A stretch of 64,000 bases of DNA from NCBI GenBank assembly GCA_031425615.1, contig JANPJR010000030.1:146492-210491 (forward strand), given 5' to 3'. A model generated the notes under the pieces. The model had not been told where the DNA came from and did not search any database. It saw only the letters and a list, made by a program, of their open reading frames with translations. Positions 2,379 through 62,375 of this stretch are shown one piece after another. Both the position numbers and the translations under genes were made by a program. Each line of letters opens with the position of its first letter. The first letter of the stretch is position 1. Source of the DNA: Cytophagales bacterium. Its GTDB lineage: Bacteria; Bacteroidota; Bacteroidia; Cytophagales; Microscillaceae.

Positions 2379-2403
2379 AAAACAGCGAAACTGACAACGT
2401 AGG
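2379..2403 (+). repeat. AACTGACAAC motif (intergenic word family)
   Basis: aaacagcgaaactgacaacgtagg, upstream of the 2444 gene. Confidence 0.4.
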
Positions 2404-2443
2404 TTTTTATAAGCCATAATGTATCCTCTATCATTAAAAACCT

Positions 2444-3727
2444 ATGCTTAATCGTACCATAGCTCCCGCAAGCAAATCGCTTACACAAATTCACATACCA
2501 CAAATGCAAACTGTGGCATTGAAAAATAACCATACATTACATTTTTTTGAAGTAAAAACCACTGAAGTATTGCGTTTAGAGCTTTTTTGGAACGCAGGCA
2601 CTATGTATGAAAGTATGCCAAATGTGGCAAATTTTACCTCAAAAATGCTAACCGAAGGCACATCAAAACATACTGCACAAGAAATTATTAGCCAAATAGA
2701 CCAATATGGGGCTTTTGTGGAAACTAATACAGGCTTAGAACGCATCAATCTTACCATTTACACACTCACAAGGCATTTTGAAAAATTATTAAATTGGGTA
2801 AATGTAATGATACATGACAGCGTTTTTCCCGAAAATGAATGGGGAAATTTACGACAAATATCACGACAAAGTCTGCGTATCAACCAGCAAAAAAATAGCC
2901 ACCAAGTAGGAAATCTATTCAAAAAATATATGTTTGGCGAAAATAACCCTTTTGGTACTTATCTTACTGAAACCAATTTGAATAATATTCAACACACACA
3001 TTTGCAAAGCTTTTTTCAGGAAAAAATTAAAAATAAACCAATAGAAGCTATTTTAGTAGGAAATTTTGGAGAAAGTAATAATTCAAATAATGCCCTAAAA
3101 ATTGCCCAAAATTTCTTAGAAAATATCCAAACTACCACCCAAAATATACGCCCTAATCTTATATTTAAAACCCCAAAACCACAACGCATCAATGAACCAA
3201 AAGCAGACAGTTTGCAATCATCATTGCGTATGGGACAACTGTTTTTTTCAAAAAACCATGCAGATTATAGCGCTTTGATGGTGCTAAACGAAGTTTTTGG
3301 AGGATATTTTGGGGCAAGACTCATGAAAAATATTAGGGAAGAAAAAGGATATACGTATGGGATTTATTCGCAATTTGTTGCCCTACGTGATACAGGATAT
3401 TGGGCGGTAAGTGCTGATGTAAAAAAAGAGTTTTTGGAAGATACTTTTTTAGAAATTGACAAAGAAGCCCAAAAACTCACACAAGATTTACTTTCTGAAC
3501 AAGAATTGGAAACCGTAAAAAATTATATGCTTGGGGCTTTTGCAGGTTCGCTCAATACACCTTTTGATGTGGCAGAAACCTTCAAAGCAATCCATTTTTT
3601 GGGTTTAGGCTATGATTTTTATACAAAATATTTGGATACTATTCGCCACATTACTGCACAAGAAATACGTGAAACCGCCCAAAAATACTTACACACAGAA
3701 AATTGGGTAAAAATCAGCGTTGGGTAA
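2444..3727 (+). CDS. M16 (pitrilysin/insulinase) family peptidase-like protein. No obvious HxxEH, so possibly the non-catalytic subunit.
   Basis: 427 aa. Domain order and motifs resemble the M16 N- and C-domains (LTEGT..., GYxxxTNxxxExxxL, LxxxFGGxxxSRL-like 'FGGYFGARLMKNIREEKGYTYG'). Confidence 0.65.
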   Translation: MLNRTIAPASKSLTQIHIPQMQTVALKNNHTLHFFEVKTTEVLRLELFWNAGTMYESMPNVANFTSKMLTEGTSKHTAQEIISQIDQYGAFVETNTGLERINLTIYTLTRHFEKLLNWVNVMIHDSVFPENEWGNLRQISRQSLRINQQKNSHQVGNLFKKYMFGENNPFGTYLTETNLNNIQHTHLQSFFQEKIKNKPIEAILVGNFGESNNSNNALKIAQNFLENIQTTTQNIRPNLIFKTPKPQRINEPKADSLQSSLRMGQLFFSKNHADYSALMVLNEVFGGYFGARLMKNIREEKGYTYGIYSQFVALRDTGYWAVSADVKKEFLEDTFLEIDKEAQKLTQDLLSEQELETVKNYMLGAFAGSLNTPFDVAETFKAIHFLGLGYDFYTKYLDTIRHITAQEIRETAQKYLHTENWVKISVG

Positions 3728-3931
3728 AAAATTATTTTAAATCTTTGTTTATTTTTATAAAAACAAAGAAAATTCTTCTTTTGGGAAAATATTTTCACTT
3801 TTGGATTTTTCTTTAATTTTAATATGTATAAAATATTGATAATCAATATTTTAATAATTGGCATAAAATTTGATTATATTATATATGTGAGATTAAAACT
3901 TAATGCATAGCTAGTTGAAGAAAAACTAAAA

Positions 3932-3966
3932 AAACCTTTCCTTATTAGGGAAAGGCTTTTTTTTGT
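3932..3966. terminator. Bidirectional rho-independent terminator (cctttcc-ttatta-ggaaagg plus T-run)
   Basis: Stem-loop followed by T8. Sits between the convergent genes 2444-3727 (+) and 4052-4945 (-). Confidence 0.7.
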
Positions 3967-4025
3967 CTTTTATTTTAGTAAATTATTGTTAATGCTGATA
4001 TTGTGCATTTGGGAACTGGCAATTC

Positions 4026-4047
4026 AAAAAACTGACAACTGACAACC
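4026..4047 (+). repeat. AACTGACAACTGACAAC tandem motif
   Basis: aaaaaactgacaactgacaacc, abutting the stop of the minus-strand LytTR gene. Confidence 0.6.
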
Positions 4048-4051
4048 TATG

Positions 4052-4891
4052 TTATTTTCCTAACCATTCTTTAAAAACATTACTTTTTTCCCTGCTTATC
4101 AAAATATCCTCTTGTGTTTTGGGCGTGGGCAATAATTCTATTTTTAATTTCCCATTAAAATATGTAACAATTTGCTTGATAGCGTCTATTTGTGCAATAA
4201 ATTGGCGATTGAGGCGAAAAAAATTTGCGGGATTTAATTGGTTTTCTAAGTCATCTAATGAATAATCCACAAAATACCTTTTGTTTTCGTGTGTTACCAA
4301 AAAAACTAATTTTTCTTCTGCCTGAAAATATGCAATTTCTGTATTTTGGATAGAGGTCAATTTTTCGCCAATTTTTACCAAAAATCGGTTTTTATATTCT
4401 TTTTTTTCTACTTGCATTTGCTTGATTATTTCACGCAATGTAGCCATTTCTGGGGTATGGTTGAATTTTTTGGTTGATTTTTCATTGATTTTTTCAGTTT
4501 GATTATCTTTCAAAAAAAATAATTTTTGAATACTTTTTTGTAATTCGTCTTTGTTGATTGGTTTGAGCAAATACCCTATGCTATTGACCTGAAACGCTTT
4601 GAGGGCATATTCATCATAGGCAGTTGTAAAAATAATTGGAAAAGGTATATCCATCGCCTCAAAAATCTCAAAACTGACACCATCAGCAAGCTGAATATCC
4701 ATCATAATCAAGTCAATTTTTGTGTTATTTGCTTCATTATTTTGTGCATTAACATATTGTGGTATGCGGTCAATGGCATCAGCCACGCTATCAATGCGGT
4801 CAATGATGTGGGCATTTGGTATAATCTCTTGTAGCATTTTTTCCAATCTACGCACCGCAGGTGCTTCATCTTCTACAATAATAATATTCAT
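4052..4891 (-). CDS. LytTR-family two-component response regulator (REC plus LytTR DNA-binding domain)
   Basis: MNIIIVEDEAPAVRRLEKML... is a receiver domain with D/D/K residues. The C-terminal LytTR fold gives the FLVKIGEKL...YFQAEEKLVFL...RYFVDYSLDDLE pattern. Start placed at the internal ATG (MNIIIVEDE). The ORF track extends to 4945. The receiver carries an N/Q-rich insertion. Confidence 0.85.
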   Translation of the reverse strand: MNIIIVEDEAPAVRRLEKMLQEIIPNAHIIDRIDSVADAIDRIPQYVNAQNNEANNTKIDLIMMDIQLADGVSFEIFEAMDIPFPIIFTTAYDEYALKAFQVNSIGYLLKPINKDELQKSIQKLFFLKDNQTEKINEKSTKKFNHTPEMATLREIIKQMQVEKKEYKNRFLVKIGEKLTSIQNTEIAYFQAEEKLVFLVTHENKRYFVDYSLDDLENQLNPANFFRLNRQFIAQIDAIKQIVTYFNGKLKIELLPTPKTQEDILISREKSNVFKEWLGK

Positions 4892-5518
4892 GGTTGTTGT
4901 TTTGTTTATTAAAAAAAATAACAAAAATATGTTTGAAATTACCACAAAAATTATAAACTAAAAAATTATGCTAAAATTAACTTAGCAAAAAATTTCCTTT
5001 CCTATTTCCAAAAAAAACCAGTTGCCCACAAATAGAAATTCTAGAGATTTCCCCAAAAATGAAAATTGGTTTTCCCATTTTGGTTTTATTATCCCGCTAA
5101 AACCTACAAACATAAAAAAACCTCCCGATTCCAACATGCAACTCATTTTTAATCTGCTTACTACTACACAAAAGTATGATTTTTTCACTAAGAAATCAAC
5201 AAGCTAATTTTTTTAGCTATAAAAAAACCAATCACATTTTGAAATGAGAGAAATGATAATTTTACACAAATGATATTTTATTTATTTCCTGTTTCTTTGG
5301 GTGAATCAAAACCTATATGGAAAGAGGAAAAAGAAGCTTGGCAATCAAAGGAAAATAGACGAATAGAAATTGAGGTTTTTGAGTAGTATGAGCGTTTTTT
5401 TTTGCTATTACTTATTTACTATTACCCAAAACATCCTTTTTTTACATATTTATTGCTTTAAAAAAATAAAAAAACGTATTTTTGCATTTTTTTAACTTTC
5501 TAAATTGCCACAAAAAAC

Positions 5519-7780: not shown

Positions 7781-7887
7781 TTTTTAGTATAAAAAAATTG
7801 GGTAATTTTACTTTTTTTTAGGTTTTTTAAATTTTTTGGATAAATTTACTTTTTTTTTAGATTTTCAAAATTTTAATAATATATTAC

Positions 7888-8162
7888 CTTACTACTATAC
7901 ATCTTTTTAGAATTTTAAAAAAGTGCTTTTAAACGATTTAAACACAATATTTTTAATAACATTTTCGAAAAATTGGGTCTGCACCGTAGTTTATGGAGGT
8001 CTGCCCCTGTTTTTTTGAAAAATTACAAACTGAAAACAGCGTTAAACACCATATTTGTTTTAGTTTTTCAAAAAAACGTATTATTTTTTAGTAAAAACTA
8101 TTTAAAAAAGCCTTTTTCCTGCGTTTTGAGTATTTTTTTTTTTAAATCTGTATAGTAGTAAG
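7888..8162. mobile_element. MITE-like non-autonomous element, copy A (~275 bp). Perfect 14-bp TIRs CTTACTACTATACA / TGTATAGTAGTAAG with a 9-bp TSD ATATATTAC.
   Basis: TIRs at 7888-7901 and 8149-8162. The direct repeat atatattac flanks both ends (7879-7887 and 8163-8171). About 90% identical to copy B at 25626-25898. The only ORF inside is a spurious 60-aa frame. Confidence 0.75.
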
Positions 8163-8205
8163 ATATATTACATAAAAAACCACTAAAACTTAAATACACA
8201 CTGTT

Positions 8206-11644: not shown

Positions 11645-11777
11645 GATATTGTTGTTGTATCAATTTATTCAGTTTTTTGTTATCTGTTTATTTTTTGTTA
11701 CCTGTTTATCTATCTAAAACTCAATGGATTTTTTTAGCTCTTTGAATTTAACCTAAAAAAAAACAAAAATTATCCTT

Positions 11778-11828
11778 TTTGAACCTTGAACTTTTTGAAC
11801 CTTGAACTTTTAAACCTTGAACTTTCTA
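11778..11828 (+). repeat. TTGAACCTT-family tandem array (5-6 units) immediately 3' of the OmpA-family gene
   Basis: tttgaaccttgaactttttgaaccttgaacttttaaaccttgaactttc. Confidence 0.8.
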
Positions 11829-13172
11829 ATCTTTCACAACTTTTATCTCTACTCTGCGATTTTTGTGGCGATTTTCTTCTGTATCGTTTGGTGCTATTGG
11901 TTTGCTTTGTCCAAAACCTGTTGAACTGATGCGTGCTTTTTTGATAAACCCATGTTCCACAATATATTGTGCGATAGCTTGCGAGCGGTCTTTGGAAAGT
12001 TGGAGGTTAAAATTAGCATCACCAACATTGTCAGTATGCCCTGAGATTTCAATATGATAATTTGGGTGGTCTTGCAAAAATTGGCTTATCATATTCAATT
12101 CGGGAAAACTATTTTTACCAATAACTGCCTTTCCTGTTTCAAATTCAATATTGGGCAAAATCAAAATAGCCCCCAAATTACTGGGTTGCAACACAAAATT
12201 TTGTTCTACAATTTTTTGATTTGGCTTCAATTCCACCAAAATACGTTGGCTAAAAAAACCTTGTGCTTTTGCCTCCAAATAAAATTTGTTGGTATATTGC
12301 ATACGACTAAACTCATATTGTCCTTTTTCTTTTTTGTCTTTATTTTCCCTTTCAGTCAATTCAAAAGCCCTATAATTAACATCTGTAAGCACATAATCAA
12401 TGCGTGAGGCAAGCGGTTGAGCATCTATTCCACTAATAACTTTACCTTTAATTTGCACAAATTCTTCTTCGTCTGGCGAGTCGTCATCAAGCGGAATTAC
12501 TTGGATATCATCTATGTAATAATACGCCCCTTCATAGCCTCCTTTTTGCCTGCGAACTGCTTTTGTGCGTTCTATTGGAAAAAAATTGCCTACAAAAAGG
12601 TAGCTAAAATTTTCAGTTGGAATAACAGTTTTTTCTAATGTTGTCCAATTATTATAATCTGTCAAAGGATTTGCAAATTTAGCGTGTGCCATTTGTGCGT
12701 GATAGCTGTCTTTGGTGTCATTTGAAAATAACATACCCAAATTATCACAAGCAAAATTAGAATATTCTTCTGCCAAACTTGCTTTTAGGCTTATTTTATA
12801 TTTGTGCCCTTTGCGTACAGGCGAAGTAAGGCGTATAGCTATGATTTCTAACGGTGATTTGACATGATACGCCAAAATACCAGCATAATTCTTGCCTTCG
12901 GAAGGCATTTGATACCCAAAAAAATTATTTGGTGTTTGGATTTTATTGCTTTGGGCATCAGCACTAAATAAATCAGGCGTAAAATAATTTTTTTCCCAAC
13001 CTTCTGCATCTTCTATATCACCATATTCCACAGGAGGCATTTTAAGGATTTCAAAACCTCCATTTGGTACAAGATTTTTGGCAGAAATTGGATTTTTATT
13101 GGTTTCTTGTGCAAAATTTTCTTTGGAAAAAATTAAAAAAACCAATGTAAAAAAAATAAAATAGAAACGCAT
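11826..13172 (-). CDS. OmpA-family protein (N-terminal secreted domain plus C-terminal OmpA peptidoglycan-binding domain)
   Basis: Signal peptide. The C-terminus ISGHTDNVGDANFNLQLSKDRSQAIAQYIVEHG...NRRVEI is the OmpA_C motif set. Confidence 0.85.
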   Translation of the reverse strand: MRFYFIFFTLVFLIFSKENFAQETNKNPISAKNLVPNGGFEILKMPPVEYGDIEDAEGWEKNYFTPDLFSADAQSNKIQTPNNFFGYQMPSEGKNYAGILAYHVKSPLEIIAIRLTSPVRKGHKYKISLKASLAEEYSNFACDNLGMLFSNDTKDSYHAQMAHAKFANPLTDYNNWTTLEKTVIPTENFSYLFVGNFFPIERTKAVRRQKGGYEGAYYYIDDIQVIPLDDDSPDEEEFVQIKGKVISGIDAQPLASRIDYVLTDVNYRAFELTERENKDKKEKGQYEFSRMQYTNKFYLEAKAQGFFSQRILVELKPNQKIVEQNFVLQPSNLGAILILPNIEFETGKAVIGKNSFPELNMISQFLQDHPNYHIEISGHTDNVGDANFNLQLSKDRSQAIAQYIVEHGFIKKARISSTGFGQSKPIAPNDTEENRHKNRRVEIKVVKD

Positions 13173-13245: not shown

Positions 13246-13294
13246 GAAAAAACTAAAAAAACTGACGACTAAAAAAACTAACGACTGAAAAACT
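13246..13294 (+). repeat. AACTGACGACT / AACTAACGACTGAAAAACT tandem motif array
   Basis: aaaaactaaaaaaactgacgactaaaaaaactaacgactgaaaaactt, abutting the stop of the minus-strand gene. Confidence 0.6.
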
Positions 13295-13611
13295 TAAATA
13301 TCTTTATTTTTTTTGGAAAACATACTGCCAATGCGTGCAAATGTTCTTTTTTCAAAAGCCCAAAAAAAGGCAAATTGACCAAAAATAAAACCGTAAAACA
13401 ATAATAATATTTGGTACAAAGGCAACATTATCAACAAATACAATAATGTGTCTACAAAGCCACCACCATTGTTGAAACCTAATAAACTAAAAAGTGGTGT
13501 TTTAAGAAATAATACACTAAAACCTGTGCAAGCAAATACAATCAACACCAAAACCACTTGTGTAAGGCTTTTGAGTTGCCAACGTGCTTGTAATTTTTCT
13601 ATAAATGACAT
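13294..13611 (-). CDS. Small hypothetical membrane protein (2-3 TM)
   Basis: 105 aa with hydrophobic helices. No recognisable motif. Confidence 0.45.
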   Translation of the reverse strand: MSFIEKLQARWQLKSLTQVVLVLIVFACTGFSVLFLKTPLFSLLGFNNGGGFVDTLLYLLIMLPLYQILLLFYGFIFGQFAFFWAFEKRTFARIGSMFSKKNKDI

Positions 13612-16502: not shown

Positions 16503-16554
16503 CGTTCTAACCTCATAAAGGGAGTTAATAAAAAAACAATTAAATACTATTTGC

Positions 16555-16577
16555 TCCTCTTTGGGGGCTGGGGCTTT
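16555..16577 (-). repeat. REP-like element, inverted copy (CCTCTTTGGGGGCTGGGGCT), with a degenerate partner at about 16508-16524
   Basis: Between convergent murF/alr (+) and the ABC ATPase gene (-). Overlaps the ABC gene stop. Confidence 0.55.
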
Positions 16578-18258: not shown

Positions 18259-18265
18259 AAAAAGA

Positions 18266-18290
18266 TTATGAATTATGAATTATGGATTTT
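18266..18290 (+). repeat. ATTATGAATTATGGATT tandem motif
   Basis: gattatgaattatgaattatggatt, just upstream of the ABC gene start. Confidence 0.6.
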
Positions 18291-20404: not shown

Positions 20405-20425
20405 TAGCCCCTAAACCCAAAGGGG
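20405..20425 (+). repeat. REP-like element (TAGCCCCTAAACCCAAAGGGG). Probable gmd terminator.
   Basis: Immediately 3' of the gmd stop. Forms an inverted pair with 20563-20586. Confidence 0.6.
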
Positions 20426-20562
20426 AAAAAATACAAAAAAGTATTTGGATTAAAGTCTGTTTTTTGGGGAGATAAAGACAAAAAATTATAAAAAAAACAT
20501 TTTTATAATTTAAATAAATACAAAAATAATACATAATTTAAATAAAAATCCTAAAAAATAAT

Positions 20563-20586
20563 TCCCTCTTTGGGGTCAGGGGCTTA
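20563..20586 (-). repeat. REP-like element, inverted copy (TCCCTCTTTGGGGTCAGGGGCTT), abutting the fcl start codon
   Basis: Reverse complement matches the family consensus. Ends at the fcl ATG. Confidence 0.6.
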
Positions 20587-22372: not shown

Positions 22373-23113
22373 ATGGTTATTTCTGTTGTAAATCACAAAG
22401 GCGGTGTGGGCAAAACAACCACTACACTCAATTTGGGCAAGGCATTGAGTTTAGAAGGAAAAAAAGTATTACTCATTGACCTTGACCCACAAGCAAATCT
22501 TTCGCAAGCGTCTGGCATTGAAAATCCACAAATAAGCATCTACAAAGCACTTTGCGATAATATAGAACTTCCTACTGTTAATTTGGGCGAAAACCTGGAT
22601 ATGGTACCTGCAGAAGTGGATTTGACAGAGGCAGAAGTACGCCTACAAGCTGATGTAAATGGGTATTTTCGTCTGAGAAGTTTGCTCAAAAATGTATTGC
22701 CTAAGTATGATTTTGTAATAATTGATTGTCCGCCAAGTTTGGGAATTTTAACCTTAAATGCCCTTATTGCTTCCCAAAAAGCCATTGTAATTGTGCAAGC
22801 AGAATATTTGGCGGTAAAAGGATTACAAACAATTTTTGATTTAATCACAAAACTTAGAGAGAATCTTAACCCAACAATTGAAATTTTGGGTATGCTCATC
22901 ACGCAACTTAATCACACCATTTTTCGCAAAGAAATTGCAGAAACCGTGCGAAATATCTACGAAGAAAAGGTTTTTGAAACCAATATCCGCCAAAATATTA
23001 CCTTAGCAGAAGCAACTTCCGCAGGAAAAGATGTTTTTTCTTTTGATAAACATTGTACTGGTGCTAAGGATTATAAAGCATTGGCTTTGGAGATTTTGGG
23101 GGCGTTGAAATAA
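22373..23113 (+). CDS. ParA/Soj-family ATPase (no adjacent parB)
   Basis: The deviant Walker A KGGVGKTT is diagnostic of ParA/MinD. Confidence 0.9.
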   Translation: MVISVVNHKGGVGKTTTTLNLGKALSLEGKKVLLIDLDPQANLSQASGIENPQISIYKALCDNIELPTVNLGENLDMVPAEVDLTEAEVRLQADVNGYFRLRSLLKNVLPKYDFVIIDCPPSLGILTLNALIASQKAIVIVQAEYLAVKGLQTIFDLITKLRENLNPTIEILGMLITQLNHTIFRKEIAETVRNIYEEKVFETNIRQNITLAEATSAGKDVFSFDKHCTGAKDYKALALEILGALK

Positions 23114-23114: not shown

Positions 23115-23146
23115 TTAAGTTTTCAGTTATTAGTTTTCAGTTTTTT
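23115..23146 (-). repeat. AACTGAAAACT motif array, inverted orientation (agttttcagttattagttttcagtttttt)
   Basis: Immediately 3' of the parA stop. Confidence 0.55.
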
Positions 23147-23242: not shown

Positions 23243-23329
23243 TTCACTATTTTTTTGTTTTTTTTAATAATTTCTCTAATTTTGCCTTAAAATTTTAACT
23301 CGTTTTTCAAAAAAACATAAAAAAATCCT

Positions 23330-25522: not shown

Positions 25523-25525
25523 TAC

Positions 25526-25558: not shown

Positions 25559-25562
25559 AGTA

Positions 25563-25600: not shown

Positions 25601-25625
25601 TTTTAAAGAAATAACTAAAAAATTC

Positions 25626-25898: not shown

Positions 25899-25931
25899 AA
25901 AAAATTCCTAATTTTTTCATTTCTAATTCTT

Positions 25932-39775: not shown

Positions 39776-39798
39776 TAGCCCCCTACCCCCCAAAGGGG
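39776..39798 (+). repeat. REP-like element (TAGCCCCCTACCCCCCAAAGGGG). Probable recG terminator.
   Basis: 16 bp after the recG stop. Confidence 0.6.
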
Positions 39799-39811: not shown

Positions 39812-39848
39812 AAACTGAAAAAACTGACTACTGAATTGACTAAAAACT
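39812..39848 (+). repeat. ACTGAAAAAACTGACTACTGAATTGACT motif array
   Basis: Abuts the stop of exbB/tolQ (-). Confidence 0.5.
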
Positions 39849-40488
39849 ATTTTGTTTCTTGCAACAAATCCATAAAATCCATTACTGTATATTCCATATT
39901 ATAAATGACTTTTTGCACCCTTGTAACCAAATAATTATACGCCAAATTGACCAAAATACCAATGATTAAGCCTGCAACAGTTGTAATTAACGCAGTATAA
40001 ATCCCGCTTGAAAGGATTTGTGGGTCTACTGCACCTTTCAACCTGGCAATTGTCATAAAAGCATCAACCATACCAATCACTGTGCCCAAAAAACCCACCA
40101 TAGGCGATGCTCCACCTATTGTGGCAAGCATAGCAAGGTTTCTTTCGAGGCGGTATACTTCTATTTTGCCCACATATTCTATGGAAGTTTCTATATTTTT
40201 GAGCGGACTGCCTATGCGTGTAAGCCCTTTGGCAACCATGCGAGCAATGGGCGAATTTTCTTGTTCGCACACAAGTTTTGCACCTTGTAGGTCTTCCGCC
40301 AATACCAATTTTTTGACTGTTTCCATCAAATCATCAGGATTGCGGGTTGCCAATCCTATGACATATACCCTTTCCAAAAATATGTACAAACCCACTACAA
40401 ATAGCAAAGCAAGCGGTATCATGGTAACACCGCCTTTGCTGGCAAGTTCTAAAATAGAAATGGTATTTTCAGTTTGTAAGAAAATCAT
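39847..40488 (-). CDS. MotA/TolQ/ExbB proton-channel family protein (no adjacent ExbD/TolR/TonB)
   Basis: Three TM helices with the conserved ...LATIGGASPMVGFLGTVIGMV... segment. Confidence 0.82.
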   Translation of the reverse strand: MIFLQTENTISILELASKGGVTMIPLALLFVVGLYIFLERVYVIGLATRNPDDLMETVKKLVLAEDLQGAKLVCEQENSPIARMVAKGLTRIGSPLKNIETSIEYVGKIEVYRLERNLAMLATIGGASPMVGFLGTVIGMVDAFMTIARLKGAVDPQILSSGIYTALITTVAGLIIGILVNLAYNYLVTRVQKVIYNMEYTVMDFMDLLQETK

Positions 40489-42094: not shown

Positions 42095-42127
42095 GGTAAA
42101 TTATGGATTAGAGATTATAGATTAAAA
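42095..42127 (+). repeat. ATTATGGATTAGAGATTATAGATT motif array upstream of the ParB-like gene start
   Basis: ggtaaattatggattagagattatagattaaaa. Confidence 0.55.
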
Positions 42128-45265: not shown

Positions 45266-45286
45266 GTCCCCTAACCCCCAAAGGGA
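45266..45286 (+). repeat. REP-like element (AGTCCCCTAACCCCCAAAGGG)
   Basis: Between the gpmI stop and the ARH start. Confidence 0.55.
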
Positions 45287-45338
45287 ACTTGAACATGGTT
45301 TTTTTAATGATTGGGGGAGAATAAAAAACTATAATTGC

Positions 45339-45375
45339 CCTTGAACCTTTTAAACCTTAAACCTTTTGAACTAAA
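45339..45375 (+). repeat. TTGAACCTT-family tandem array overlapping the gpmI C-terminus
   Basis: ccttgaaccttttaaaccttaaaccttttgaactaaaat. Its reverse complement encodes ...LVQKV* of gpmI. Confidence 0.75.
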
Positions 45376-46889
45376 ATATTTCCTGTCATCATTTTAGGAA
45401 TTTCTATGCCCATAAGTGTTAAAATAGTAGGTGCAAGGTCGCCAAGTTTGCCACTTTTGAGTGTATAATTTTTATGGTCAGAAACCAAAATAAAAGGCAC
45501 AAGATTGGTGGTGTGGGCAGTATGAGGCGAGCCATCTGGGTTCATCATAATATCCGAATTACCATGGTCAGCTATCACAATAGATGTGTAACCGTTTGCT
45601 AAGGCAGTATTTACCACTTCTTGCGTACAAAAATCAACCGTTTCGCAGGCTTTAACTGCTGCTGCAAATACGCCTGTATGTCCCACCATGTCTGCATTAG
45701 CAAAATTAAGACAAACAAAATCCACTTCTTTTTTTTGCAATTCGGGAACAATAGCATTTTTGATGTCTAATGCACTCATTTCGGGTTGTAGATCGTATGT
45801 AGCAACTTTTGGCGAAGGGCACAAAAGCCTACTTTCGCCCTCAAAAGGCAATTCTCTGCCTCCTGAAAAGAAAAATGTAACGTGTGGATATTTTTCTGTT
45901 TCTGCTATTCTGATTTGTTTTTTGCCTGCTTTTGCCAATACATCTCCAAGTGTATTTTCCAAATTATCTTTTTCAAAAAGCACTTTTACATTTGTAAATT
46001 TCTCATCATAAATCGTCATTGTGAGATAATGTAAAGGTAGTTTTTGCATATTAAATTCTGCAAAATCTTCTTGTGTGAGTGCTTGCGTGAGTTGGCGACC
46101 TCTGTCATTTCTAAAATTAAAAAACAATACCACATCATCATTTTGAATCGTAGCAAGCGGTTTGCCCAAATTGTCTACTGCCAAAATTGGTTTAATAAAT
46201 TCATCTGTGATACCTTCTGCATAGGCATTTTTCAAACTTTCTATGATATTTTGTGTGGGCATTCCTACACCTTTCACGAGCAAATCATACGCCAATTTTA
46301 CCCTTTCCCAACGTTTATCCCTGTCCATCGCATAATAACGCCCAATCACCGAAGCGATTTTTGTGCCTGTGTGTTGGATATGTGTTTGTACATCTATCAG
46401 ATATTGCACACCACCATTGGGCGAAGTATCACGCCCATCAGTAAACGCATGGATAAAAGTTTGGTTGTCCAAACCTTCATTTTTAACAATATCACAAAGC
46501 CCTTTCAGGTGTTCAATATGTGAATGTACGCCTCCATCAGATACCAAACCAATAAAATGGATTTTTTTATGGTTATTTTTGGCATACGCCAATGCTTCTT
46601 TTAGATGTGGATTTTGGGCTAATTCATCTGTTTTTACTGCTTGATTGATGCGTACCAAATCTTGATATACTACTCTGCCTGCACCTATGTTGGTATGCCC
46701 CACTTCCGAATTGCCCATTTGACCTTCGGGCAATCCTACTGCAAGCCCTGATGCTTCTAAAGTACTGTGTGGATAGTTTTTGAAAAGACTATCCATAAAA
46801 GGCGTTTCGGCGTGTGCTATGGCAGATACTTTGTCGTCTGTACCCAAACCCCAGCCATCTAAAATCAAGAGAATTACTTTTTGTTGCAT
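45357..46889 (-). CDS. gpmI: 2,3-bisphosphoglycerate-independent phosphoglycerate mutase
   Basis: MQQKVILLILDGWG...SEVGHTNIGAGR...ADHGN are canonical iPGM motifs. Confidence 0.95.
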   Translation of the reverse strand: MQQKVILLILDGWGLGTDDKVSAIAHAETPFMDSLFKNYPHSTLEASGLAVGLPEGQMGNSEVGHTNIGAGRVVYQDLVRINQAVKTDELAQNPHLKEALAYAKNNHKKIHFIGLVSDGGVHSHIEHLKGLCDIVKNEGLDNQTFIHAFTDGRDTSPNGGVQYLIDVQTHIQHTGTKIASVIGRYYAMDRDKRWERVKLAYDLLVKGVGMPTQNIIESLKNAYAEGITDEFIKPILAVDNLGKPLATIQNDDVVLFFNFRNDRGRQLTQALTQEDFAEFNMQKLPLHYLTMTIYDEKFTNVKVLFEKDNLENTLGDVLAKAGKKQIRIAETEKYPHVTFFFSGGRELPFEGESRLLCPSPKVATYDLQPEMSALDIKNAIVPELQKKEVDFVCLNFANADMVGHTGVFAAAVKACETVDFCTQEVVNTALANGYTSIVIADHGNSDIMMNPDGSPHTAHTTNLVPFILVSDHKNYTLKSGKLGDLAPTILTLMGIEIPKMMTGNILVQKV

Positions 46890-47075: not shown

Positions 47076-47111
47076 AAAACTGACGACTCAAAAACTGACA
47101 ACTGACAACTT
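47076..47111 (+). repeat. AACTGACGACT / AACTGACAACTGACAACT tandem array abutting the TPR gene stop
   Basis: aaaaactgacgactcaaaaactgacaactgacaactt. Confidence 0.65.
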
Positions 47112-47114
47112 ATT

Positions 47115-48314
47115 TTATTTTTTATTAAAAGTAGCTGCTTTGTTCCAATCTTCTTCTGCGCCTATGGCATCTCCCATGCGTTGTTTTACCAAACCACGAC
47201 TTATATAAGCCAGGGCATAATCTTTTTGGAGTTCAATGGTTTTATTAAAATCTGCTAAGGCTTCCGCAAATTTTTCCATGCCCATGTACAAATTTCCACG
47301 ATTATAATACGCATTTGTATTATTTTTATCTAAAACAATTGCTTTGTCCAAATCTTTTTGTGCTTCAGGGTATTTTTTTTGGTTGGTATAAATAATGCCA
47401 CGTTGCAAATACGCCAAACTATAATTATTGTCAAGTTCAAGGGCTTTATTGAGTTCTATGAGGGCTTCTTTTTGTTTTTTTAATTCTGCAAAAGTTGCTC
47501 CTTTATAATAATAAGGTGCTGGATTTTTACTATCCAATTTAATTACTTTATCAAAATCCACCATCGCATCAAGTCCTTTCCCTGCATTAAAAATGATAAT
47601 ACCACGTTGCAAAAACGCCTCTTTATAATTAGGATTTAATTCAATGGCTTTTTTCAAATCTGCCATTGCTTCTGGGATTTGTTTTTGGGTATTGTACCAC
47701 AAAGCACGATAAAAATAAGCGGTGTGGTCTTGTGGTGCGAGTATAATTGCTTTGTCAAAATCCTGTTTCGCTCCTTGAATGTCTTTCAGATTTTCTTTAA
47801 GAATTGCCCTATTCAAAAGCGTTTTTGCATCTTTTGGTTTTAATCGTAATACACTTTCAAAATCCATCAAAGCCCCTTCCATATCTTTTGCTTGATATTT
47901 GAGCAATGCAAGCTGAAAAAATGCTTTGTGGTCTTGTGGTGAGGCTTTGGTGGCTTTGGTAAAGTCATTGTAAGCTTGTTCTTGGTTTTTGAGTTCCAAA
48001 TACGCCAAACCTCTGTAAAAATAACCTTTTCCATCTTGTGGTTTCAATTCTAATAGCATATTATAATCTTGGATTGCACCTTGCAAATCACCCAAACTTG
48101 CTTTGGTAAGTCCTCTGCCACCGTAGGCATTTGGGTTAAATTTGTCCAATTTTATGCCTGCATCAAAATCCGCCAATGCTTCTTTAAATTTTTTACCTTG
48201 CAATTTTAAACTTGCTGATTTGAAATATTGTGTGGCATCTTGGGCGTTTATGTGTGCGGTTGAAATCCATACACATAACAATAAAAAAGATAAGAAATTT
48301 GATTTTAAAAGCAT
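47115..48314 (-). CDS. Tetratricopeptide-repeat (TPR) protein, secreted
   Basis: Signal peptide plus about 10 TPR units (AxxxYxxALxxxP pattern repeated). Confidence 0.85.
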   Translation of the reverse strand: MLLKSNFLSFLLLCVWISTAHINAQDATQYFKSASLKLQGKKFKEALADFDAGIKLDKFNPNAYGGRGLTKASLGDLQGAIQDYNMLLELKPQDGKGYFYRGLAYLELKNQEQAYNDFTKATKASPQDHKAFFQLALLKYQAKDMEGALMDFESVLRLKPKDAKTLLNRAILKENLKDIQGAKQDFDKAIILAPQDHTAYFYRALWYNTQKQIPEAMADLKKAIELNPNYKEAFLQRGIIIFNAGKGLDAMVDFDKVIKLDSKNPAPYYYKGATFAELKKQKEALIELNKALELDNNYSLAYLQRGIIYTNQKKYPEAQKDLDKAIVLDKNNTNAYYNRGNLYMGMEKFAEALADFNKTIELQKDYALAYISRGLVKQRMGDAIGAEEDWNKAATFNKK

Positions 48315-48414: not shown

Positions 48415-48443
48415 ACTTAAAAACTGATAACTGACAACTTGCA
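48415..48443 (+). repeat. AACTGATAACTGACAACT motif
   Basis: aacttaaaaactgataactgacaacttgc. Confidence 0.55.
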
Positions 48444-52338: not shown

Positions 52339-52522
52339 TAGCCTTTTCAAAAGAAGGCTTTTTTTAGAATTAAAAAATGAAAAAGAGATAAATAAAAATA
52401 TGCTTCTTATTGTGATAAAAAGCATATTTCTGCAAAAATAGTGATTTTTAAGAAAAAATCCAAATATAACCTAAAATCAAAAGAGGGAATTAGTACAAAG
52501 AGCAAAAAAGTAGCAAATTTTT

Positions 52523-52835
52523 CTCACTACTATACAAATTTAAAAAAAAACTTGTTCAAAATGCAGAAAAAGGTTTTTTCTAAATGTTTTTTATTGAAAA
52601 AATAATACATTTCTTTCTTACTACTATACAAATTTAAAAAAAATACATTCAAAATACATAAAACAGGCTTTTTTTAAGGATTTTACCTAAAAAAATATTT
52701 TTTTCTTTGAGAAATTAAAAAAAAATGCGTTTATGGTTGTGGTTGGTTGGTAAATTTTTAAAAATGTTATAAAAAAACCTTTTCAAACGATTTAAAACAC
52801 TTTTTTTAGACTGTGAAAATGTATAACAGTAAGAG
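52523..52835. mobile_element. Degenerate or rearranged MITE-like element, copy C. Two direct copies of the left TIR (CTCACTACTATACA at 52523, CTTACTACTATACA at 52607) and a degenerate right TIR (TGTATAACAGTAAG, about 52820).
   Basis: Shares the TIR motif and internal segments (aaacgatttaaaacac, ccgtaaaat) with copies A and B, but is diverged. Confidence 0.5.
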
Positions 52836-53832: not shown

Positions 53833-53850
53833 CTCCTTTTGGGGGTTAAG
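53833..53850 (-). repeat. REP-like element, partial inverted copy (CTCCTTTTGGGGGTTAAG)
   Basis: About 20 bp 3' of the amidohydrolase gene stop. Confidence 0.45.
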
Positions 53851-58294: not shown

Positions 58295-58315
58295 TAGCCC
58301 CCTAAACCCAAAGGG
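58295..58315 (+). repeat. REP-like element (TAGCCCCCTAAACCCAAAGGG). Probable terminator.
   Basis: 9 bp after the lipoprotein stop. Confidence 0.6.
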
Positions 58316-58448
58316 AAACAAGCTATTTATGTTAAGTTTTTATAAAAATTGTGGCGTAAAATGTACCTCAAAATTAACTTTTCATAATATGGATAAATAG
58401 ATACACCTTTTTCTAATTAGTTTTTTCAAAAAACCTCATAAAAAAACC

Positions 58449-58510: not shown

Positions 58511-58533
58511 TTGATAACTGAAAAAACTGAGCG
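58511..58533 (+). repeat. GATAACTGAAAAAACTGA motif
   Basis: ttgataactgaaaaaactgagcg, abutting the infC stop. Confidence 0.5.
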
Positions 58534-58534: not shown

Positions 58535-59290
58535 TTAGATTTTGTTTATATCAAAATCTTCTGAATTTTCAGAGATTTTTTTCTTTTTCTTTTTAGGATA
58601 TTTTTCGTTTTCTGCTTCCATTTCGTTTTCTTCTTCTGATGCTTTACCTGTTTCCTTTTCTACTTGTTTTTCTATTTTTTGTTTTTCTGCTTTTTCTTTT
58701 TCACGTTCATCTTTTTCTTTTTTGCTAAGGGCAGATGCTTTTGGATTGATATAGATAAACATACGTTTTCCTTCAAGTAGAGGCATTTGTTCTACTTTTC
58801 CTACTTCTTCCAGTTGTTGGGCAAAGCTAAGGAGTAGTTTTTCGCCACGTTCTTTGTACACGATAGCACGCCCTACAAACTGCACATAAGCACGTACTTT
58901 TGCACCTTCTTGCAAGAAATTTTTTGCATGATTGAGTTTAAACTCAAAATCATGTTCGTCTGTATTAGGACCAAAACGAATTTCTTTTACAACAGCTTTT
59001 TGGGCGTTTGCTTTACTTTCTTTGGTTTTTCTCTTTTGTTCATATTTGAACTTAGAGTAATCAATAATTTTGCAAACAGGTGGCTCTGCCTTTGGGGAGA
59101 TTTCCACCAAATCAAGTTGTTGTTCTTTGGCAAACGTAATAGCTTGTTGCACTGTATAAACGCCTTGCGTTACATTTTCGCCTACAAGTCGCACTTCTGG
59201 GACTTTGATGTGTTGGTTGATGCGATAGGGTTCTTCTTGTCGCCCTCTGTTATCGCGTCTGTTGTTGTTTCTTTGGTTGTTGTTATTCAA
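58535..59290 (-). CDS. infC: Translation initiation factor IF-3 with an N-rich N-terminal and a K/E-rich C-terminal extension
   Basis: Core ...[53 protein letters not shown]... plus the C-domain [31 protein letters not shown] is canonical IF-3. The start codon is uncertain (IF-3 often uses AUU/AUA). Confidence 0.88.
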
Positions 59291-59672
59291 GCGATTTTAA
59301 GAAAAATAAAAAATATGACAATTATAAATGAATATTGCGTATTAAAATATTTGCTGACAAATACTTTGCACATTTACTTTTAGACGCAAAAATAAGATTA
59401 AAAAATATAATTTATGCAATTTTTTTTGTATAATTTTTTTGTTTTTTTTCAAAAAAAATTAATTACAACTTTTATGCTGACTAACTTGCATAAATTTACA
59501 TGTAGATTTAGTTATTTTTGTAACTTATTTTGTAACTACTTTTATGGTTATTTTTGTGTTTGAACTTTGTAGGTGTATGTTGTTGTTTATTTTAAAGTTA
59601 TCTGTTTTTTAGTAGTCAGTTCTTTAAGTAAAACAACCAAAATACACCAAATAAAATTTGTAAAAAAACTGA

Positions 59673-59722
59673 ATACTGAAAAAACCTTATAACTTAAAAA
59701 CTGATAACTTGGATTAAATATA
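59673..59722 (+). repeat. ACTGAATACTGAAAAAAC...AACTGATAACT motif array upstream of mnmA
   Basis: aaaaaactgaatactgaaaaaaccttataacttaaaaactgataacttgg. Confidence 0.55.
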
Positions 59723-60858
59723 TGAGCAAAAAAGGACGTGTATTAGTGGCAATGAGTGGTGGAATAGACAGTTCTCTCGCTGCAGTATTGCTACATGAAC
59801 AAGGATATGAAGTGGTGGGTATGACCATGAAAACGTGGGACTATGCTTCTTCTGGTGGTACAAAAAAAGAAACTGGGTGTTGTAGTTTGGATTCTATCAA
59901 TGATGCAAGACATGTGGCAGTGCAACTTGGGTTTCCGCATTATATTTTAGATATTAGAAATGAATTTGGTGATTATGTGATTGACCATTTTACCAATGAA
60001 TATATCGCAGGACGCACCCCAAACCCTTGTGTGTTGTGTAATACACACATAAAATGGGACGCATTGTTGCAAAGAGCAGACAAATTACATTGCGATTTTA
60101 TTGCAACAGGACATTATGCACAAGTGCGTTATGAAAATGGAAGATATATCATTTCAAAAGGTTTGGACGAAAACAAAGACCAATCTTATGCACTTTGGGG
60201 CGTGTCGCAACAAAGCCTTAGCAGGACAATTTTTCCATTGGGAAAACTCCACAAAACCGAAATATATGAAATGGCTACGCAAAAGGGTTTTATGGAACTC
60301 GTAAATAAACCTGAATCCTATGAAATATGTTTTGTGCCTGACAATGATTATAGAGGTTTTCTCAAAAAACGTGTGCCTACCTTAGAAGAATCTGTAAAAG
60401 GTGGCGAATTTGTGTTGGAAGATGGTACGGTGGTTGGTACGCATGAAGGCTATCCTTTTTATACGATAGGACAACGCAAAGGCTTGGGTATTGCCTTGGG
60501 GTATCCTGTGTTTGTAACAGGCATTGACCGCAAAAATAACAGAGTTGTGCTTGGACACAAACATCATTTGGCAAAAAATGCTATGCGTGTGCATCAATTA
60601 AACCTTTCCAAATATGAAAATGTATTTAATCCTTTGGAAACTATTACCAAAGTACGTTACAATGATGATGGCACACCCGCAAAACTTTGGCAAAAAGATG
60701 ACGAAATTATTGTGCATTTTCACGAACCTGTTTTTGCTATTGCACCAGGACAAGCCTCTGTTTTTTATGAAGGCAATGATGTAATTGGTGGTGGCTGGAT
60801 TACGGAAAGTTTTGATGTGGAGAATTCAGTCATCAGCAATTCAGCAGTCAATTATTAG
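59722..60858 (+). CDS. mnmA: tRNA-specific 2-thiouridylase MnmA
   Basis: VLVAMSGGIDSS PP-loop. CCSLDSINDAR. Catalytic Cys residues (NPCVLCN). Confidence 0.95.
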   Translation: MSKKGRVLVAMSGGIDSSLAAVLLHEQGYEVVGMTMKTWDYASSGGTKKETGCCSLDSINDARHVAVQLGFPHYILDIRNEFGDYVIDHFTNEYIAGRTPNPCVLCNTHIKWDALLQRADKLHCDFIATGHYAQVRYENGRYIISKGLDENKDQSYALWGVSQQSLSRTIFPLGKLHKTEIYEMATQKGFMELVNKPESYEICFVPDNDYRGFLKKRVPTLEESVKGGEFVLEDGTVVGTHEGYPFYTIGQRKGLGIALGYPVFVTGIDRKNNRVVLGHKHHLAKNAMRVHQLNLSKYENVFNPLETITKVRYNDDGTPAKLWQKDDEIIVHFHEPVFAIAPGQASVFYEGNDVIGGGWITESFDVENSVISNSAVNY

Positions 60859-60949
60859 TTTTTTAGAAAAAAACTTTAAATTTTATGTTTTTTTTAAGCA
60901 AAAAAATAATTTATTGTTATTGTTTTTACTATACGAATTTACGAAAACC

Positions 60950-60981
60950 AACAACTAAAAAACTGACAACTGATAACTTGC
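60950..60981 (+). repeat. AACTGACAACTGATAACT motif array
   Basis: acaactaaaaaactgacaactgataacttgc. Confidence 0.6.
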
Positions 60982-61610
60982 TTTATTTTTATTAAAAATT
61001 GTATTTTTTTAAGAAACTAAAAAAGAGCGTTTTTTTATACTAATATAAAAAAACACTCTTTTTTTAATTTTTTCAAAATTTTCTTCTGAAATTTTAATTT
61101 TTGCCTATTGTCATTTGTTTGTACAAGTATCTCCAAAAAACACGGTTTTTTGACTATTTTTTGCCCCTAAATCTCCAAAATGGACTTTAAATATGATATT
61201 TTTTTGTATTTGTTCCTTATTTAAAATTTGGGCAATTTTTTATTTTTTGATGCGATTACGCATTACGTTTCAAGTGGGAAGCCTGTGCTACAAATAGACC
61301 TGCAATAAATACCAACAAAATAGCGACTAACATAATAAATTTTTGAGTTTTGAATAAGGTTTGTCATAAACTCTATGCAAAGATACGCATGTTCTAATAG
61401 GTTGTTGCATTTCAGTAGAAAATTTCACAAAAACTTAACATGAATTTTCAAAAAATTGTATTATTCCGATATAAAGTATTATTTGAAAATGAAAAAATGA
61501 TTTTGATAAAATTAAAAAATTAGGTTTTTTACAAAAACTAAAAAAATTAAAATAACCAATTTCTTTATTTTTTGGATATTTTTGCAAAAGTTAAAAAAAT
61601 CTTGATTTTA

Positions 61611-61690
61611 ATTTATTCTTAATTTATTCCCATAATCCTTAATTCCCAATTTTAATTTATTCCTAATTCTTAATTCCTAATTTAAAAAGA
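61611..61690 (+). repeat. TAATTCC(T/C) / TAATTTATTCC degenerate tandem array upstream of the peroxiredoxin gene
   Basis: taatttattcccataatccttaattcccaattttaatttattcctaattcttaattcctaattt. Confidence 0.6.
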
Positions 61691-62265
61691 TGAGTTTAAT
61701 CCTAAAAAAAGCCCCACATTTTTCAGCACCTGCATTGATAGAAGGTCAAATCTTTCAAGATTTTTCATTGGAACAATATTTAGACAGCAAATATGTTGTA
61801 TTGTTTTTTTATCCAAAAGATTTCTCGGGTGTGTGTCCAACTGAATTTTGGGCATTTCAAGAGCGTTTAAAAGATTTTTCAGACAGAGATGCGGTTGTGA
61901 TTGGTTGTTCTACCGACAGTGACGAATGTCATAAAGCATGGCTAAATACGCCAAGAGCCAATAATGGCATTGAAGGCATTACATTTCCTTTGGTGGCTGA
62001 TATGGCTAAAACAATTGCTATCAACTATGGCGTTTTGGGTGGTGATTATACCTACGACGACGAAGGAAAAACAACCTTTGAAGGCTCGCCTATTTGTTTG
62101 CGTGGCACTTTTATTATTGATAAAAAAGGCGTTGTTATGTATGAAAGCATGAATTTTTATACGATTGCACGCGATATTGACGCAGTTTTGAGGGAATTGG
62201 ACGCAATCCAAAATTTTCAAATTAATGGCAATCTTTGCCTTGCAAACTGGAAAAAAAGTAAATAA
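61690..62265 (+). CDS. Peroxiredoxin (AhpC/TSA family, Prx)
   Basis: VVLFFYPKDFSGVCPTEF has the peroxidatic Cys in the thioredoxin fold. Confidence 0.92.
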   Translation: MSLILKKAPHFSAPALIEGQIFQDFSLEQYLDSKYVVLFFYPKDFSGVCPTEFWAFQERLKDFSDRDAVVIGCSTDSDECHKAWLNTPRANNGIEGITFPLVADMAKTIAINYGVLGGDYTYDDEGKTTFEGSPICLRGTFIIDKKGVVMYESMNFYTIARDIDAVLRELDAIQNFQINGNLCLANWKKSK

Positions 62266-62280
62266 CAGTTGTCAATAGCC

Positions 62281-62375
62281 AGTTTTTTCAGTAGTCACTA
62301 AAAACACTTAACTGAAAAAACTGAGTACTGAAAAAACTAAATTAACCAATTACTGAAAAAACTAAATTAACTAAA
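62281..62375 (+). repeat. ACTGAAAAAACTGAGTACTGAAAAAACTAAATTAAC degenerate tandem array
   Basis: Seen directly between the peroxiredoxin and fahA genes. Confidence 0.6.

Follow-up and report, generated by a model that had tools for sequence, protein, structure and literature searches.

According to the literature, the closest described relatives of the repeats considered here are the intergenic TAACTGA direct repeats of MacGregor 2015 (Front Microbiol 6:1397, PMC4679880), which number 170 sets in one genome of the Beggiatoaceae, most of them ending 1-40 nucleotides (nt) 5' of start codons in place of Shine-Dalgarno sites, and which also occur in Thiocystis, 15 cyanobacteria and five Bacteroidetes including Flexibacter litoralis. 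In that account the forward sense carries stops in all frames, the reverse sense is open and no RNA structure is formed, and S1 or cold-shock-type proteins were proposed as readers of the repeats. A stop-adjacent class in reverse orientation comprised 12 of the 170 Beggiatoaceae sets, one F. litoralis set and 8 of the 22 intergenic Microcystis sets sampled (PMC4679880). Papers later than this one merely mention the TAACTGA repeats, and a Nostoc preprint reports that other heptamers close to start codons have regulatory effects. In this study, the tandem arrays at gene boundaries in 64,000 nt of DNA from a Cytophagales bacterium (GCA_031425615.1, contig JANPJR010000030.1, positions 146,492 to 210,491; the whole stretch is called the window below) were investigated. 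We observed that these arrays belong to the NAACTGA/TAACTGA heptamer family already described by MacGregor. With a probability of roughly one half, we consider them to be simple sequence repeats (SSRs) born of slippage, kept in one polarity at the boundaries of open reading frames (ORFs) and acting at the RNA level as structure-free spacers.

The repeat is far from random in the window. ACTGAYAACT was matched 10 times (0.14 expected) and ACTGAAAAAACTGA, allowing at most one mismatch, also 10 times (0.10 expected), and successive ACT[GA]A cores on the same strand are spaced by 7 nt in 17 pairs and by 9 nt in 12 pairs, against about 1.2 for either spacing in block shuffles. With an array defined as at least two clustered ACT[GA]A cores, 16 arrays were obtained, or 14 once neighbours were merged, and none of the 16 lies inside any of the 56 ORFs of our hand-curated map, all of them being intergenic. 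Read in the AACTGA sense, an array begins with an A-run and continues with AACTGA plus any base (7 nt) or with AAAAACTGA (9 nt); the units found were CAACTGA, TAACTGA and AAACTGA, and the repeat is best written as the hexamer AACTGA/AACTAA followed by one free base (7 nt) or by AAA (9 nt). An earlier model-made description of this DNA, hereafter the sequence-only reading, had given the unit as ACTGA(C/T)AACT; that word does recur, though a hexamer with its spacer base or bases describes it better. The motif is present at every one of the 15 positions which it had cited, with three corrections: at 2379 there is just a single unit plus a fragment (AAACTGACAAC, 2388-2398); at 62281 the copy is not in plus but in minus orientation (CCAGTTTTTTCAGT, 62279-62292), the plus copies starting at 62309 and reaching the ATG at 62382; and at 29013 there is a degenerate pair with a 22-nt period. 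An equal frequency of the motif in coding sequence would have spoken against the same reading, but AACTGA and AACTAA are the top two hexamers of the window by intergenic over coding enrichment, at about eightfold. Isolated copies of ACAAACTGAAAA at 8029 and 25767 are parts of a separate repeat of about 290 nt. The arrays and the other repeats of the window are collected in Table 1.

Table 1. NAACTGA arrays of the window, followed by its other repeats, with their positions, strand and nearest gene boundary
Feature	Positions	Strand	Setting
Single unit and fragment (AAACTGACAAC), weak member	2388-2398	+	46 nt 5' of start of gene 2444-3727
A-run and 2.4 units AAAAAACTGACAACTGACAAC	4026-4046	+	5 nt from stop of minus-strand gene 4052-4945
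Five cores, 9- and 7-nt spacing alternating	13247-13293	+	abuts stop of minus-strand gene 13294-13611
Three cores AAGTTTTCAGTTATTAGTTTTCAGTTTTTT	23117-23146	-	begins 3 nt past stop of plus-strand gene 22373-23113
Four cores	25524-25561	-	directly past stop of glnN (23330-25522)
Four cores ACTAA/ACTGA	26603-26636	+	19 nt from stop of minus-strand gene 26656-27540
Degenerate copies AGTTGTCAGTATTTA..., 22-nt period	29014-29064	-	about 40 nt 5' of start of gene 28312-28977
Longest array, nine cores, 16-nt super-period	29109-29195	+	last core 87 nt from stop of minus-strand gene 29268-30026
Four cores	39812-39846	+	abuts stop of minus-strand gene 39847-40488; convergent genes; CCCCCAAAGGGG hairpin adjoining
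Degenerate unit and 2.6 perfect units	47076-47112	+	2 nt from stop of minus-strand gene 47115-48314
Two units AAAAACTGATAACTGACAACTT	48419-48440	+	divergent spacer, 108 and 147 nt from start codons; exception to boundary rule
Two cores, 9-nt spacing	58514-58530	+	4 nt from stop of minus-strand gene 58535-59290
Three exact ACTGA cores and degenerate units	59662-59710	+	ends 11 nt 5' of mnmA ATG (59722)
Three cores	60952-60979	+	about 95 nt 3' of mnmA stop; no convincing ORF 3'; exception to boundary rule
Minus copies CAGTTGTCAATAGCCAGTTTTTTCAGT	62266-62292	-	from first base past stop of gene 61690-62265
Seven forward cores	62309-62381	+	reach ATG of gene 62382-63638
TTGAACC/GGTTCAA heptamer/octamer family	11775-11825, 30299-30354, 30870-30904, 31224-31255, 34820-34859, 45339-45371		adjoins ORF ends
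Heptamers ATTGTTA, ATTATGA, GATTATA, ATTATAG, ATTCCTA	1638-1676, 18265-18288, 37498-37524, 42100-42124, 61615-61683		2-30 nt from start or stop codon
Dispersed repeat of about 290 nt	7885-8165, 25622-25900		
94-nt tandem units	52505-52695		
G4/C4 palindromes	1002-1073, 2118-2130, 16503-16575, 20405-20430, 20570-20585, 28290-28311, 37636-37648, 39787-39798, 45270-45300, 53834-53850, 58296-58320		looser copies at many gene ends

The location of the arrays is strongly one-sided. In the AACTGA sense, 10 of the 14 merged arrays have an ORF boundary within 20 nt (3-19 nt) of their 3' end and no array has one that near its 5' end, while random placement and orientation in the same spacers gives 1.9 arrays and none of 20,000 simulations reaches 10 (sign test p=0.001). 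In eight of these ten cases the boundary is the stop codon of a gene on the opposite strand. Altogether, the stops of nine genes are followed at 0-19 nt by an array in UCAGU sense (4052, 13294, 23113, 25522, 26656, 39847, 47115, 58535 and 62265), eight of them from the automatic array call and the ninth (62265) read by eye, and the mRNA past these nine stops has the form stop-N(0-19)-(UCAGUUN)n-U5-7, which bears out the U-rich 3' element that the sequence-only reading had described; the transcript of gene 4052-4945, for instance, reads its array as GUUGUCAGUUGUCAGUUUUUU. The same reading had also placed copies in 5' regions; the element abuts start codons in the opposite orientation, both in the window and in other phyla. 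Start-directed forward arrays are found in the window only at 59662-59710 and 62309-62381, plus the weak copies at 2388 and 29014, the latter of which read ACTGACAACT in the sense of gene 28312-28977 and form an inverted pair with the array at 29109-29195.

The family is also widely spread. The exact 18-mer AAACTGACAACTGACAAC from the window was found in at least 120 genome contigs, where our own estimate of the chance expectation is about 17 in 596 Gb. Among the matches listed are Acidobacteriota, Planctomycetota, Bacteroidota, Cyanobacteriota, Nitrospirota, Desulfobacterota, Chloroflexota, Pseudomonadota (including Thiocystis) and others, and many of the genomes bearing it in this set have 55-68% G+C. 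The matches are flanked by long degenerate arrays, frequently in inverted pairs and frequently ending just 5' of an ATG. When these arrays were extended by a criterion that weighs all seven positions equally, with the seed units left out of the counts, the 407 remaining units showed A.89, A.97, C.97, T.90, G.86 and A.87, with C.57, A.28 and T.12 at the free base; mismatches pile up at the seventh position (43%, vs 3-14% elsewhere), and these frequencies therefore describe a conserved hexamer with a wobble base. An ORF boundary lies within 25 nt on the 3' side of 55 arrays (27 starts of ORFs in the same sense and 28 stops of ORFs in the opposite sense) and on the 5' side of nine (p=2e-9), with ORFs called crudely as greedy longest frames, whose starts in high-GC genomes are perhaps set too far upstream. 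The 28 stop-adjacent arrays signify that the stop-adjacent class of the window is common across phyla.

A similar rule was reported for other heptamers by Rehm et al. 2015 (PLoS One, PMC4692102), namely the G-rich GGGAATC of Xanthomonas and GGGGA(C/T)T of Nostoc, which are intergenic and transcribed and have the G-rich strand at a distance of 0-50 bp to the ORF, on the coding strand 3' of stops and on the non-coding strand 5' of starts, in any ORF orientation. As suggested by this finding, we scored the polarity of every period-7 array adjoining an ORF in the window and in two loci (L001 and L122) of a relative, GCA_013297825.1. The strand leaving the ORF had more G than C in 37 of 40 arrays and more C than G in three (p=1e-8), and the ratio stayed at 33 vs 3 with NAACTGA arrays excluded. 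In the cross-phylum loci (L002-L121), under the same crude ORF calls, G exceeded C on the leaving strand in 50 vs 7 NAACTGA-like arrays and in 40 vs 5 arrays of other heptamers. We also considered stop codons in all frames as a property unifying the entering strands, and this fails for the AATGGTA family of the relative. Array-free 40-nt leaders in the window had a negative G-C balance in 41 cases and a positive one in six; being already G-poor, they make the leader polarity explicable as a fit to a general constraint.

Because this polarity always points toward an ORF boundary, be it start or stop, the arrays might guard entry into genes: the NAACUGA RNA running toward a gene, being untranslatable, unstructured and G-poor with at least as much C as G, would load Rho or a similar factor, so that tail-on copies would stop antisense or convergent read-in and head-on copies would tie transcription to prompt ribosome loading. 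Suppression of antisense transcription is one of the main roles known for Rho in Escherichia coli. The idea also agrees with an entering strand richer in C than in G across heptamer families and phyla (also PMC4692102) and with forward repeats that are structure-free and have stops in every frame (PMC4679880). Nevertheless, just one or two C per 7 nt are offered, the arrays are far below the roughly 60-80 nt typical of Rho utilisation (rut) sites, the 7-nt spacing of C mismatches the spacing in rut predictors, and the closeness of tail-on copies to the stop (0-10 nt) is left unexplained, for which reasons we regard an entry guard as very doubtful. A wider generalisation, distinctly speculative in our opinion, is that all gene-adjoining heptamer microsatellites of bacteria, with a G-poor strand into the ORF and a G-rich strand out of it, are polar insulators of gene boundaries. 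The RNA entering a gene, whether sense or antisense, would then serve as a loading pad, unstructured and untranslatable, on which a termination factor or a ribosome assembles, and the RNA leaving it an inert or pause-prone complement, with NAACTGA as the most widespread solution, convergent or horizontally spread, in at least eight phyla.

As RNA, the arrays have a minimum free energy (MFE) of 0 to -3 kcal/mol with positive z-scores, with or without 45 nt of upstream coding sequence (MFE 0 for the leader array at 59662-59710), in agreement with the earlier statement that the element past the stops has no strong hairpin. Two exceptions were found. The array at 26603-26636 makes an 11-bp A/U-rich hairpin (-9.8 kcal/mol) in the transcript, and the minus copy at 62279-62292 together with the first plus copies from 62309 forms a hairpin of -19.4 kcal/mol (z -3.8) at 62266-62330, with a 13-bp core stem, in the intercistronic spacer of the co-directional genes 61690-62265 and 62382-63638. 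The cross-phylum loci often contain inverted array pairs like this latter one, as in L103, L106, L046 and L088. A trailer hairpin made with upstream coding sequence was rejected, as 45 nt on each side of the nine stops folded no better than shuffles. Circularisation of mRNA by pairing of 5' and 3' arrays was likewise rejected, because no gene of the window carries both and pairing in cis occurs only at 62266-62330. The 3' untranslated regions (UTRs) of genes 39847-40488 and 58535-59290 carry UCAGUUUUUUCAGU (39814-39827 and 58517-58530), a perfect 14-nt complement of ACUGAAAAAACUGA (62311-62324) in the leader of gene 62382-63638, and pairing in trans between trailer and leader arrays would in principle be possible.

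Separate terminators follow two of the arrays: a 16-bp hairpin with a T-run lies at 25561-25596, directly past the glnN array, and the transcript of gene 58535-59290 has a 10-bp hairpin with a T-run at +67 to +91. The arrays at these genes are thus inside the 3' UTR and not at its end. Within 110 nt of the stops 4052, 13294, 23113 and 62265, no hairpin with a T-run was found, and the match past 47115 is weak (7-bp stem with two G-C pairs, at +80). These four array genes without a hairpin terminator leave room for termination at the U-run, and it is quite unlikely, but conceivable, that the hairpin-less (UCAGUUN)n-U6 trailer pauses and releases RNA polymerase or recruits a nuclease with the aid of a factor, and that opposite copies at gene starts act on antisense polymerases leaving the 5' end. 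All nine trailers have a run of U5-U7, the RNA made by any polymerase leaving the ORF is U-rich with G above C, a symmetry that fits an exit barrier, and a conserved TAATTTTG promoter box belonging to glnN itself lies 3' of the array that follows gene 22373-23113. The canonical terminators past the arrays at glnN and 58535-59290, however, would make an array redundant there, orthologous genes of relatives manage without arrays, and termination does not require tight spacing to the stop codon. There is also no hairpin in the arrays, and U-runs by themselves are not known to terminate transcription. The class of intrinsic terminators was rejected, since the arrays neither fold (26603-26636 excepted) nor pair with upstream coding sequence and the separate hairpins lie downstream. 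As read in the sense transcript, arrays measure 14-50 nt and have more G than C, so that the sense trailers do not resemble the rut sites of Rho-dependent terminators, with which the sequence-only reading had proposed a comparison. Its suggestion of a factor-dependent termination or decay signal finds no support in our computations, and the real terminators behind two arrays, the opposite orientation abutting start codons and the array-free orthologous sites argue against it.

The turnover of individual arrays is rapid. GCA_013297825.1, whose proteins are 94% (GlnN) and 97% (MnmA) identical to those of the window, shows no AACTGA excess in its two loci, no AACTGA array at the 3' flank of glnN or at either flank of mnmA, and no repeat at all upstream of mnmA. 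Past its glnN stop there is a GGTTCAA/GTTTAAG array and then a different terminator, and its mnmA ORF ends inside an AATGATG/AATGTTA array (L122 10330-10360 vs window 60820-60858), with the last residues and the stop within the heptamer array and a protein of 369 amino acids vs 378 in the window; the C-termini of proteins can therefore be remodelled by heptamer arrays. In more distant relatives, with 78-79% GlnN identity, there is either a plain terminator or no repeat. As the arrays are missing at orthologous sites, individual ones must be young and dispensable. GCA_013297825.1 nevertheless has boundary heptamer families of its own, AATGRTA, ATTCCTA and GGTTCAA, and the conserved trait is the setting of heptamer arrays against the ends of ORFs, not the individual arrays.

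This turnover would be expected if the arrays were functionless microsatellites produced by slippage, which persist only at harmless places and in a harmless orientation, an explanation that we consider unlikely on the whole. It fits the array-free orthologous sites with their replacement by other heptamers (GGTTCAA past glnN and AATGATG over the mnmA stop), the coexistence of several unrelated heptamer families in each genome and the agreement of leader polarity with general G-depletion of leaders. The literature also offers the 7-nt-step indels between Cyanothece strains (PMC4679880) and the statement of Mrazek 2007, as cited in PMC4679880, that, among long SSRs, those of heptanucleotides form the commonest class in many prokaryotes. 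In viral contigs, moreover, same-composition control heptamers are not much rarer, the seed 18-mer giving 7 matches and four permuted-unit controls 1, 6, 0 and 3. Uniform decay, however, does not predict the concentration of mismatches at one of the seven positions, background composition does not account for the trailer polarity, and the extreme one-sided closeness to ORF boundaries would need an orientation-specific filter. There is also no gradient of degeneracy from 5' to 3', and directional growth of arrays toward the ORF was itself rejected, as 104 arrays showed no difference between the 5' and 3' sides in unit degeneracy or in-phase flank score.

Gene order gave rise to a further possibility. 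No neighbours are common to the window and GCA_013297825.1 around glnN (23330-25522) or mnmA (59722-60858), and the breakpoints fall at gene boundaries, where heptamer arrays sit. The arrays may in principle work at the DNA level, as sites for a protein binding double- or single-stranded DNA (a roadblock or nucleoid organiser) or as recombination substrates for gene shuffling, in line with the role in rearrangement that MacGregor suggested for long Gramella arrays (PMC4679880) and with what is typical of cooperative DNA binders, namely short motifs arrayed in either orientation. We find this highly improbable, because strict polarity and a spacing of 0-10 nt to start or stop codons are unexpected for nucleoid or recombination sites, no candidate protein emerged, and the Xanthomonas G-rich heptamer sites are syntenically more stable than controls (PMC4692102). 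Two other classes do not match the arrays: phase-variable contingency SSRs, since the arrays lie outside ORFs and beside housekeeping genes (glnN, mnmA, a response regulator and a TPR protein), and mobile repeats of the miniature inverted-repeat transposable element (MITE) or repetitive extragenic palindrome (REP) type, since the units are direct tandems of variable number with no terminal inverted repeats.

Our preferred reading, that of slippage-born and polar RNA spacers, may be set out as follows. The arrays would be dispersed, fast-evolving short tandem repeats that arise by replication slippage and persist only in untranslated DNA hard against ORF boundaries, with the polarity fixed. The strand running toward the gene, 5'-(NAACTGA)n-3', is the A-rich, G-poor and unstructured one with stops in all frames, and the strand running away from it, 5'-(TCAGTTN)n-3', the U-rich one with more G than C that is open in all frames. 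A gene with the element accordingly carries either an AACUGA leader ending 0-40 nt 5' of the AUG or, in the form dominant in the window, a UCAGU trailer 0-19 nt past the stop and upstream of any real terminator. Such RNA would offer structure-free spacers where ribosomes load (leaders) and unload (trailers). Bacteroidota make little use of Shine-Dalgarno pairing, and leader copies would replace the Shine-Dalgarno region among the generally G-poor leaders of the window; trailer copies would not act as terminators but would be tolerated or of weak use. There may be a dedicated partner that binds single strands, of the S1 or cold-shock type that MacGregor proposed.

Several observations weigh against this reading. 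Three of the 14 arrays (48419, 59609 and 60952) do not adjoin an ORF, and hidden small ORFs sought beside the rule-breaking arrays at 48419, 60952 and 29109 gave no convincing candidate. Array-free trailers of the window have no G/C skew (22 vs 25), so the trailer polarity needs a cause of its own, which the spacer idea does not supply. In viral contigs the seed 18-mer was not clearly commoner than the four control arrays, which gives no clear sign that NAACTGA is favoured globally over other heptamers. The crude ORF calls given above count on the same side, and the loss of copies at orthologous sites in close relatives argues that single copies are dispensable. Finally, whereas polarity, missing structure, rapid gain and loss, and a G>C rule common to other heptamer families were shown, the RNA-level role is inferred from position only.

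With regard to its general content, the window has 31-35% G+C, and no tRNA genes were found in it. Among its proteins are a glutamine synthetase of type III, a fusion of MurF with Alr, and OmpA-type proteins with C-terminal domains that match models of the CHU_0125 and PorE types, though below the cut-off; they indicate a Cytophagales-type member of Bacteroidota, and the top named GlnN homologues belong to metagenome-assembled genomes of Cytophagales and Microscillaceae. In an Rfam search of the whole window no family reached the gathering score. A scan for sigma-70-type promoters near the arrays gave no excess over shuffles, and exact matches of the Bacteroidota -7 box TAnnTTTG had no sharp distance peak by which the arrays could be placed relative to transcription starts, with only the glnN box being convincing. 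This box, TAATTTTG/TATTTTTG followed by CC(T/C)(T/C)AAAA, lies about 45 nt 5' of the glnN ATG (23280-23300), is conserved between the window and two relatives (L001 and L142) and is likely a Bacteroidota-type -7 promoter element.

Other repeats also occur at the gene boundaries of the window. The TTGAACC/GGTTCAA family adjoins ORF ends as NAACTGA does, and a 16-nt super-period is common in it; transcripts read GGUUCAAGGUUCAA right past the stops of genes 11826-13172, 30353-30871, 31261-31713 and 45357-46889, and the family is common to GCA_013297825.1, where it follows glnN and mnmA. The arrays of the five further heptamers listed in Table 1 all have more G than C on the strand leaving the ORF. 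The two copies of the dispersed repeat of about 290 nt are 90% identical and have terminal inverted repeats, CCTTACTACTATACA ... TGTATAGTAGTAAG; it looks MITE-like and quite unlike the NAACTGA arrays, and the related 94-nt tandem units have the CTCACTACTATACAAAT end in common with it. A third boundary word family consists of G4/C4 palindromes, CCCC(N)AAAGGGG, of which the strict pattern gives 8 matches against 0.08 expected in the window; the looser copies commonly lie right past stops, and these palindromes may be hairpin terminators without a T-run.

In terms of meaning, the window adds another Bacteroidota genome to a family that has been described once, in 2015, and in it the little-studied stop-adjacent class dominates. 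The kind of repeat is known; what is unusual in the window is this predominance and the 9-nt spacing variant. Beyond the literature that could be found, we observed a wider range of the family, including high-GC Acidobacteriota and Planctomycetota, a unit made of a conserved hexamer and a wobble base, and an ORF-boundary polarity and G>C rule that hold across heptamer families and phyla, the breadth of the family and the cross-family rule being the most worthwhile parts. If the polarity is functional, through ribosome loading, insulation or a single-strand binder, it would represent a general, uncharacterised layer of gene-boundary signalling in bacteria with low use of Shine-Dalgarno sites. 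If it is merely a tolerance filter on slippage products, the arrays would still have a use as rapidly evolving strain markers and as a caution to predictors of terminators and small RNAs.

Compared with known signals, the trailers resemble intrinsic terminators in lying 3' of stop codons with a terminal U-run, but lack the G+C-rich hairpin (MFE about 0). They share with rut sites an unstructured, untranslated sequence with regularly spaced C, and a forward strand with C at least equal to G; a rut site, however, is C-rich and about 60-80 nt long, whereas the sense trailers are 14-50 nt long and low in C, with G above C. Among heptamer repeats, Mazel et al. reportedly described in 1990 the short tandemly repeated repetitive (STRR) sequences of heterocyst-forming cyanobacteria, dispersed intergenic tandems of CCCCAGT, TTGGTCA and CAACAGT. 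Two of these three units contain the ACTG core once reverse-complemented, though they differ from NAACTGA, and we know of no polarity analysis of them. The G-rich heptamers of Rehm et al. follow the same positional rule as the arrays of the window and also occur in inverted pairs, but their unit is different and capable of forming G-quadruplexes, of which the structure-free NAACTGA is incapable, and two Xanthomonas species have these sites largely in common, whereas the closest relative available does not have the arrays of the window. The TAACTGA repeats of MacGregor agree best: both consist of an AACTGA hexamer with a variable seventh base in 7-nt tandem, are nearly all intergenic, unstructured in both directions and closed by stops in all frames in the forward sense, and are mixed with other heptamers. 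The reported hosts, Bacteroidetes, cyanobacteria and sulfur-oxidising Gammaproteobacteria, fit a window from Bacteroidota and an 18-mer present in Bacteroidota, cyanobacteria and Thiocystis. The two differ in that 147 of the 170 Beggiatoaceae sets point toward a start and 12 toward a stop, against nine stop-adjacent genes and three to four start-adjacent arrays in the window; in the seventh base, which is mostly C or A in our arrays and T in the described repeats; and in the core spacings of the window, of which about 40% are 9 nt (AAAAACTGA), giving the 16-nt super-periods. Finally, the very limited phylogenetic range given in that paper is extended here to at least 120 genomes, including Acidobacteriota, Planctomycetota, Nitrospirota and Desulfobacterota.

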